The notes under the pieces: model-generated
What the model saw: only the letters and a program-made list of their open reading frames with translations
What the model was told of the DNA's origin: nothing
Database searches by the model: none
Virus record (IMG/VR): IMGVR_UViG_3300018933_000001
Location: 1 to 64,000 of that record
Reading direction: 5' to 3' (one strand)
From: a virus
DNA length: 64,000 nt
Part shown: positions 30,749 through 31,611 of the stretch, piece by piece
How positions within the stretch are numbered: position 1 is the first letter of the stretch
Layout: each line of letters begins with the position of its first letter
Program-made: the position numbers and the translations under genes

Positions 30749-30776
30749 TTGACTAAGCTAATCAAGTATGTATAGT
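30749..30776 (+). promoter_or_regulatory. Sigma70-type promoter P1 (TTGACT-16-TATAGT)
   Basis: Consensus match. Confidence 0.55.
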
Positions 30777-30841
30777 GTATTTTAGCTCAAATAACTTGTT
30801 CTTATTAGTTCTCTTAATTATATTATATCAACTTAACTCCC

Positions 30842-30870
30842 TTGACTTGTATCTCTACTTATGCTATTAA
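30842..30870 (+). promoter_or_regulatory. Sigma70-type promoter P2 (TTGACT-17-TATTAA, with extended TG); divergent TGATATAAT on minus strand at 30822-30830
   Basis: Consensus match with a weaker -10. Confidence 0.45.
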
Positions 30871-31134
30871 GTTACTCCTTATCTATATAACTACCTAAGT
30901 TAGGGTAATCATTTTAACTATCTATAGTCACGTAACTTCTATATCCTTATTACTCTTCATCTGTCTTATCTGATGTACTCAATAGCTCTATCTACCTACA
31001 TTAGAACTAACTACAGTACATCCCGCTCTTAACTACTCTTATATCCTTATATAGTGTCTGATGTGCCTACTCAACTCATAAGTAACATAACTAATCCAGA
31101 TGTACCTTCATCAGGAAGACTAATAGTTAACCTC

Positions 31135-31164
31135 TTTACAAGTCAGGAAGTAATCGTTTAGTAT
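31135..31164 (+). promoter_or_regulatory. Sigma70-type promoter P3 (TTTACA-18-TAGTAT)
   Basis: Consensus match directly before a structured non-coding leader. Confidence 0.6.
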
Positions 31165-31553
31165 GTGTACAGGTTGAGAAAGAGGCGACAAGCTAATGAC
31201 TTAACCTATTAATGCTATCTCAGCCGAGGTGGTAAACCAAAGAGTAAAGGATATCTAGCTAAGATATGCCGGAGACTCACTCTCTTATACCTGTAGGTTA
31301 GTTAACTATGTCTGCTATTAGTTAAGCATCTGTTAAACTCATCTACACTGATAAGAGATAACTACCCTAACTAAACCTGCTTATATCTGTTGATAGTTTG
31401 CACAATGGTTAAGTTACTCGTAATCTATTCTTTAGTAAGGGAGATAACACACAACTAACATAACTCACATACCTTAGTTACAATCAGCTTCTATAGTCGA
31501 GAACATCCGGCGAAGTATCTGGTAATAACAAAGGTTACATCTAAATAAGTTAC

Positions 31554-31611
31554 CTGTCACGCTAAGTACATCTACACGACAGAATAAGACAGAACCTTGA
31601 AAACAGAATAG
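31554..31611 (+). promoter_or_regulatory. boxB-like hairpin plus rrn-type boxA antitermination site
   Basis: CTGTC...GACAG hairpin (31554-31582) followed by GAACCTTGAAAAC (31592-31604), which matches the cyanobacterial rrn ITS boxA GAACCTTGAAAA as I recall it. Confidence 0.7.

Follow-up and report, generated by a model that had tools for sequence, protein, structure and literature searches.

The RNA element boxA recruits NusB and NusE. In the 16S–23S spacers of cyanobacteria, boxA has the sequence GAACCTTGAAAA and is followed by D4, CTGCATA (PMC8461337). In E. coli boxA, the C at position 4 is critical (bioRxiv 10.1101/091223). Phage use of a host rrn-type boxA is already known from T7, in which the early promoters for host RNAP are followed by a boxA antitermination element (Savalia 2010, as cited in PMC3709561), and boxA occurs in CRISPR leaders, for which an anti-Rho role has been proposed (Stringer et al. 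2020, eLife 9:e58182, as cited in PMC7862264). Our literature search found no paper linking boxA with any cyanophage and none on the boxA of cyanobacterial tRNA clusters. Here we describe a 20-nt element of a phage genome (31592–31611, plus strand) that, judged by its sequence, we predict to be a working boxA of the cyanobacterial type, a reading that we regard as likely on balance.

The locus can be set beside two well-described phage systems. As in T7 (promoters A0–A3, then boxA), the operon opens with promoters for host RNAP and, behind them, a boxA of the host's rrn type, an arrangement that would not require an N-type protein. The two differ in host phylum and boxA sequence; moreover, the host of T7 has Rho, and T7 is without tRNA-like punctuation. 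Like the nut sites of lambda, the element would be a phage RNA signal that recruits NusB-S10 to modify the host polymerase, recruitment being predicted here. However, lambda depends on binding of N to boxB and has a boxA that deviates from the rrn consensus, whereas no lambda-type (N-type) boxB was seen at the phage site.

The window, by which we mean the whole 64,000-nt stretch analyzed, comprises positions 1–64,000 of the 146,537-bp IMG/VR virus record IMGVR_UViG_3300018933_000001, which has short terminal repeats. The site falls in a 1.25-kb gap free of ORFs (30506–31751) that separates divergent genes. On the minus strand, the gene at 29747–30505 gives a weak HTH_psq match only; on the plus strand, a long run of genes begins at 31752. 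The first ORF of this block (31752–32402; phrog_554) contains a Kyano_Gp96 domain (PF23790, E 9e-25), which spans residues 71–159, and similarity in the relatives begins at residue 46. A T-arm-like hairpin (ATGGTTCGATTCCAT, 31886–31902, plus strand) belonging to the fold of the first tRNA-like element, ∼280 nt after boxA, falls within the 5′ part of this ORF. The annotated start is therefore probably too early, and because the Pfam domain covers only residues 71–159, translation may in fact begin downstream of the tRNA-like element. No Rfam family reached its gathering score in the window, and a search of 30300–31900 relaxed to E 5 yielded nothing meaningful; Rfam likewise detected no rRNA downstream of the phage boxA, and ARAGORN detected no tRNA in the window.

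Cultured phages yielded no DNA match to the leader, and searches of them with TerL returned distant matches only (24–29% identity), to phages of many hosts. Public data hold 29 homologs of the gene adjoining the leader, and alignment-based scans for relatives gained one new genome. Our comparison set comprises five phages: the window and four relatives (L002, L003, L005 and L264), which are IMGVR 3300037464_000007, 3300022891_000002 and 2209111000_000005, and the metagenome contig LCrCPGB2_illDRAFT_1000001 (L264). The last of these, 307,959 bp in length, carries a second, identical locus (L265) 153,935 bp away, and hence represents two tandem copies of a ∼154-kb phage genome, as a concatemer or through assembly wrap-around. 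When aligned, the leaders of the phages are ∼70–80% identical and have large indels. About six blocks of at least 12 nt are common to all five, one of which is the boxA block (31589–31604). We rejected a coding reading of the leader, given that its short frames occur on both strands and mirror the DNA conservation, with no ORF conserved.

The core of the element, GAACCTTGAAAA, occupies 31592–31603 on the plus strand and is the single exact copy in the 146,537-bp genome, compared with ∼0.03 copies expected by chance (our own estimate from base composition). The initial annotation had named this motif as the cyanobacterial boxA, and rightly so: the published core is identical (PMC8461337). The C at position 4 is kept. 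Conservation in related phages, to which that annotation had looked for support, is indeed found, as four of the five phages have the exact core and the fifth, L264, has GAACCTTGATAA (11/12 positions), while its surroundings are less conserved, the flanks being full of large indels and having diverged to 70–75% identity. Immediately downstream in the window (31604–31611) comes CAGAATAG, an extension typical of host tRNA-array leaders. The corresponding flank in L002 is ATGAATAG, and in three relatives an insert of 22–31 nt separates boxA from an (A/C)ATAGTA flank.

The phage boxA is on the same strand as the downstream genes, with conserved promoters upstream of it. It lies 740–930 nt downstream of these promoters (P1 and P2, described below) in all five phages and 160–370 nt from the likely start codon. 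In host leaders, boxA is found ∼15–60 nt from the start. In predicted folds, boxA is unpaired in the window and in L264 and mostly unpaired in L002. Part of it pairs with an upstream AAGGU in the folds predicted for L003 and L005, a pairing that, if formed as modeled, would hide a site that must be single-stranded. We also considered boxA as part of a promoter, with TTGAAA as the –35 element, and discarded the idea upon inspection, which revealed no –10 at the right spacing.

To what extent is the motif characteristic of cyanobacteria? Across 121 cyanobacterial genomes, GAACCTTGAAAA occurs 315 times, compared to 102 times for the reversed control. Classification of 49 exact cyanobacterial copies by context placed 10 in 16S–23S spacers (with 23S 65–160 nt downstream), four in rrn leaders (∼115 nt before 16S), 13 in CRISPR leaders and one at the head of a 14-tRNA array; nine lie inside long ORFs and are taken as chance, and the other 12 are intergenic and assigned to no class. 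All 28 of the copies in host RNA operons have ATA at +5 to +7, versus 0/9 of the ORF copies, and the phage window has this ATA as well. When the motif is extended (GAACCTTGAAAANNNNATA), there are 178 matches versus one for the control in the 121 cyanobacterial genomes, and five versus two in 151 Bacillota genomes. A profile (R1) built solely from the 28 host RNA-operon sites finds a single match in the 64-kb window, at 31586–31615 (28.3 bits, E 1.4e-7), and also detects the sites of three relatives (L002 at E 2.4e-6).

It is the extended motif, and not the bare 12-mer, that is specific to cyanobacteria, since the 12-mer is also found at the ends of Clostridium MAG contigs and hence is not exclusive to the phylum. 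At the contig ends of Clostridium sp. and other MAGs (L025, L050, L108), GAACCTTGAAAA is followed by TTAAACAGTATG or TTGAACAATG, and these copies probably belong to rrn leaders. Six IMG/VR contigs (L216, L203, L200, L192, L190, L236) carry consensus TTGACA-17-TATAAT promoters, in tandem in L216, with ACAGAACCTTGAAAA 20–50 nt after the promoter and ATA at +5 to +7, in non-coding DNA; strong Shine-Dalgarno sites on these contigs hint at Bacillota hosts. In the 15-mer scan of IMG/VR and the 14-mer scan of genomes, chance copies predominate among the matches listed.

What follows boxA differs between classes of site, in that spacers have CTGCATA, rrn leaders have TATTATAG and most CRISPR leaders have CCAAATA or CTAAATA. 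In seven loci (L128, L130, L139, L146, L280, L282, L293), the CRISPR array starts 42–43 nt after boxA, and further CRISPR leaders with the exact rrn boxA are seen in L129 and L145 and in L134, L144, L287 and L290. Nostoc sp. DedSLP03 (L132, the same locus as L037) has a leader of the CRISPR type, whose boxA is at position 1501 of the locus (minus strand). This leader, homologous to those of L129 and L145, consists of a promoter and then boxA enclosed by an 8-nt inverted repeat. It is an orphan leader, as no repeat array follows, and it leads instead into a gene in antisense orientation. The phage site resembles CRISPR-leader boxA elements, including those of the 13 cyanobacterial leaders, in standing at the head of what would be a long, multi-unit and untranslated transcript. 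It differs from them in that its flank is unlike CCAAATA or CTAAATA, and an anti-Rho role is impossible in genomes without Rho.

A complete match to the phage site is found at tRNA arrays. The 20-mer GAACCTTGAAAACAGAATAG (31592–31611) is identical to tRNA-array leaders in three cyanobacterial genomes (L315, L316, L317), whose arrays hold 21, 14 and 21 tRNAs. All three arrays are preceded by a TTGACA-18-TAGTAT promoter and a ∼10-bp hairpin, the latter ending 11 nt before boxA. Three more arrays, of 14–25 tRNAs, begin with GAACCTTGAAAACTGAATAA (L142, L318, L320), and the heads of the six long arrays share a promoter, a small hairpin and a boxA with the flank C(A/T)GAATA(G/A). These six arrays, each with 14–25 tRNAs within 3 kb, belong to six genomes of filamentous-type cyanobacteria (G001, G060, G009, G066, G097, G054). 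Beyond the 20-mer, similarity between the phage and host array leaders is not significant in local alignments: 9–14 of 300 shuffles reach the score for two of the genomes, and the third falls below the shuffle mean.

These comparisons bear on the initial annotation, which had viewed the early transcript as a mimic of an rRNA operon. Alignment with host rrn leaders and spacers does reveal a shared exact core and ATA at +5 to +7, but the flank CAGAATAG is neither CTGCATA nor TATTATAG and is instead identical to that of the host tRNA-array leaders. Because of this identity, we adopt the tRNA array rather than rrn as the model. On present comparison of the sequences, the phage operon is more similar to a host tRNA-array operon than to an rrn operon, a likeness that fits the tRNA-like elements between the phage genes. 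The site shares with the cyanobacterial rrn antiterminator (PMC8461337) the 12-nt boxA, the ATA at +5 to +7, tandem sigma70 promoters and a predicted untranslated context; it differs in having no AGCA/UGCU boxB and no rRNA downstream, in having a flank other than CTGCATA(G) or TATTATAG, and in the distance of boxA from the promoters. With the tRNA-array leaders, it shares the 20-mer (three genomes, with a close variant in three more), the small upstream hairpin and a row of tRNA-shaped units after boxA on the same strand. The differences here are that the phage units only resemble tRNAs, lack an anticodon and have protein genes between them, and that the phage promoters map 740–930 nt upstream, compared to ∼60 nt in the host. 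Signal and tRNA-like punctuation, taken together, look as if a host tRNA-array operon had been copied and protein genes placed within it.

Three sigma70-like promoters had been proposed upstream of boxA, and conservation supports two of them. P1 (30749–30776, plus strand; TTGACT-16-TATAGT, 10/12 match) is the top-scoring plus-strand promoter-like site within 29.5–33 kb in a promoter scan. Its –35 element is kept in all five phages and its –10 in four, as TATAGT, CATAAT or TATAGC, with variable spacer length. P2 (30842–30870, plus strand) consists of TTGACT (30842–30847), a 17-nt spacer and TATTAA, with TG two bases before the –10, as in promoters of the extended –10 type. The scan list lacks P2 on account of its weak –10, but the –35 is again kept in 5/5 phages, 92–123 nt 3′ of P1, and TGnTA is kept in four. 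The third candidate, P3 (31135–31164, plus strand; TTTACA-18-TAGTAT, 9/12 match), is poorly conserved, having a counterpart in one relative only (TTGACC-17-TATATT in L002; L003 is without anything comparable). Promoter-like sites across the region show no excess over chance (17 versus 12.8, sd 3.0), and so it is conservation that supports P1 and P2. A promoter candidate nearer to boxA (CTAACA-18-TACAAT, plus strand, 31455) was listed by the scan. For the divergent gene (29747–30505), there is a minus-strand promoter-like site at 30596–30625 (TTTACT-18-TAAAAT). This site is contained in a 38-nt block within 30590–30633 that is invariant in three phages.

Next to the boxA, the initial annotation had described a boxB-like hairpin. 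A hairpin is present at the place described (31554–31582, plus strand), formed by CTGTC (31554–31558) and GACAG (31578–31582), with 5 bp and a 19-nt loop, 9 nt before the motif. The comparison with boxB, however, is not supported: taken alone, this hairpin does not exceed chance expectation (–4.8 kcal/mol, z +1.1). Host rrn spacers have a strong boxB helix with an AGCA/UGCU base, which is absent from the phage hairpins (window and relatives). Every one of the five phages has some hairpin ending 6–9 nt before boxA, and these are of two unrelated types. One has a 5–6-bp stem and a 19-nt loop; L003 and L005 form it from CCTACT/AGTAGG, with three pairs altered on both sides relative to the window. 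The other, a ∼15-bp helix, replaces the window-type hairpin in L002 and L264. A further structure, the conserved leader hairpin at 31281–31358 (plus strand), is an inverted repeat with TCTCTTAT … ATAAGAGA at its base (fold –23 kcal/mol, z –1.9). Few 12-mers are common to all five leaders, and both arms of this hairpin belong to them. It lies ∼230 nt upstream of boxA and may be a processing site.

How might such an element act? Host RNA polymerase would start at the tandem promoters P1/P2, or at a nearer promoter, and transcribe the untranslated leader, whereupon the emerging boxA RNA would be bound by the host NusB-S10 pair. NusB-S10, with NusA and NusG, would make the polymerase fast and resistant to pausing and terminators, and the modified polymerase would read through the plus-strand block that follows, with its tRNA-shaped folds at the gene junctions. 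Loading of the complex might take place late, as it does at the boxA of rrn spacers, or else the closer candidate promoter at 31455 might be used. The phage would thus possess a copy of the host array head, with promoter, small hairpin, boxA with the same flank and tRNA(-like) units. That the site is transcribed, that Nus factors bind it and that the polymerase is altered are all inferred here from sequence. One consequence of the layout is that boxA would act only on what follows it, because it is located 740–930 nt downstream of P1 and P2. The earlier suggestion that boxA helps to transcribe the long leader consequently falls away, the leader being upstream of boxA.

NusB was found in all 41 cyanobacterial genomes searched. 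The RNA-binding domain of Rho, by contrast, was found in 0/41 of these genomes, with the same search positive in 9/14 control genomes. Antitermination in the E. coli sense, as invoked in the initial annotation, is thus hard to retain as the whole mechanism. Since no Rho was found, we favor processivity over Rho antitermination; the benefit probably lies in processivity, in reading through strong RNA structures and in orderly folding and processing of the RNA, and not in protection from Rho. By the same token, boxA at cyanobacterial CRISPR arrays would not be merely anti-Rho. Several observations count against our proposal: the long distance from P1 and P2 to boxA, the variant core of L264, the insert that displaces the flank in three relatives, and the pairing of boxA predicted for L003 and L005. 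In addition, the complex would find few intrinsic terminators to override downstream. On the plus strand, the first strong terminator-like site is at 45216–45243. Promoter-like sites in 31600–51000 are fewer than in shuffles (43 versus 64, sd 8.5). A bolder idea is that the phage copied the whole tRNA-array control scheme for its protein genes, that is, a Nus-loaded polymerase at boxA plus tRNA-shaped punctuation cut by host tRNA-processing enzymes. We offer this larger scheme tentatively, and consider it somewhat doubtful.

Several other readings of the element deserve consideration. An ancestor of these phages could have taken up the head of a host tRNA array, such that the 20-mer persists by descent and not as a Nus site, and the tRNA-like elements are the decayed remains of the captured array. 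The 20-nt identity with host tRNA-array leaders is what this would predict, as are tRNA-like, anticodon-less elements downstream where ARAGORN finds no true tRNA. However, retention of the core (exact in four phages, 11/12 in the fifth) despite flanks at 70–75% identity and large indels argues for selection, and the lack of significant similarity past the 20-mer means that any capture was not recent. We therefore judge simple inheritance unlikely. Selection might, on the other hand, act on a site for some factor other than Nus, either a phage regulator binding DNA or RNA or an RNase whose processing would separate leader RNA and mRNA, with the resemblance to boxA incidental or reflecting mimicry that serves another purpose. 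The block does sit where the conserved structured leader meets the coding part, with the conserved hairpin 31281–31358 upstream and hairpins flanking the site in all five phages. Yet it is not palindromic, it occurs once per genome, and its agreement with the host consensus extends over 20 nt and takes in the class-specific flank, which would be unexpected without a Nus role; hence we view a non-Nus site as quite unlikely.

Two further alternatives accept Nus binding and assign it a different purpose. Abundant leader RNA from two strong promoters could titrate NusB-S10 and starve transcription of host rRNA, CRISPR and tRNA arrays. The conserved promoters, with their consensus –35 elements, would suit such a decoy, and titration would weaken CRISPR defense, given that host CRISPR leaders use the same motif. 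But each transcript has one site, whereas sponges usually carry several, and the orientation of the element and its position before a long operon fit a role in cis, which makes titration very improbable in our estimation. Alternatively, boxA elements in 5′ UTRs can repress (bioRxiv 10.1101/091223; PMC12360218), and Nus binding could lower expression or translation of the first gene, as in E. coli suhB. That mechanism needs Rho, which was not found in the 41 cyanobacterial genomes, and the phage site is 160–370 nt from the likely start codon, compared to ∼50 nt or less in the described cases. Hence, we attach scarcely any weight to repression. A boxA working in cis on the polymerase that transcribes the downstream genes remains our preferred reading.

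Since the model invokes host factors, the identity of the host matters. The boxA motif is itself a host clue, albeit one that is not independent of the finding. Independent clues include the Kyano_Gp96 domain in ORF 31752–32402 and the distribution of homologs of ORF 13950–14357, which are present in 4/201 cyanobacterial genomes (including a Nostoc) and 0/151 Bacillota genomes; another is the location of a relative on a contig named LCrCPGB2. A search with window positions 1–20000 against 401 cyanobacterial genomes gave no match to CRISPR spacers, the matches being AT-rich chance ones outside arrays and an acidic low-complexity stretch only. These clues point to a cyanobacterial host, modestly and short of proof, and the host is probably a soil-crust cyanobacterium.

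A boxA of this type in a phage would extend the strategy known from T7 to a phylum in which our search of 41 genomes found no Rho. The match between the phage signal and the host tRNA-array leaders brings boxA and the tRNA-like elements into one testable model, and the 20-mer could be used as a host-phylum marker for uncultured phages. On the host side, the exact rrn boxA is shared by CRISPR leaders and tRNA arrays of cyanobacteria. If the phage did copy the whole tRNA-array control scheme, boxA in Rho-less cyanobacteria would mark a general ‘RNA-operon’ mode of transcription, serving rRNA, CRISPR and tRNA arrays alike, and a virus would be able to redirect this mode to messenger RNA.
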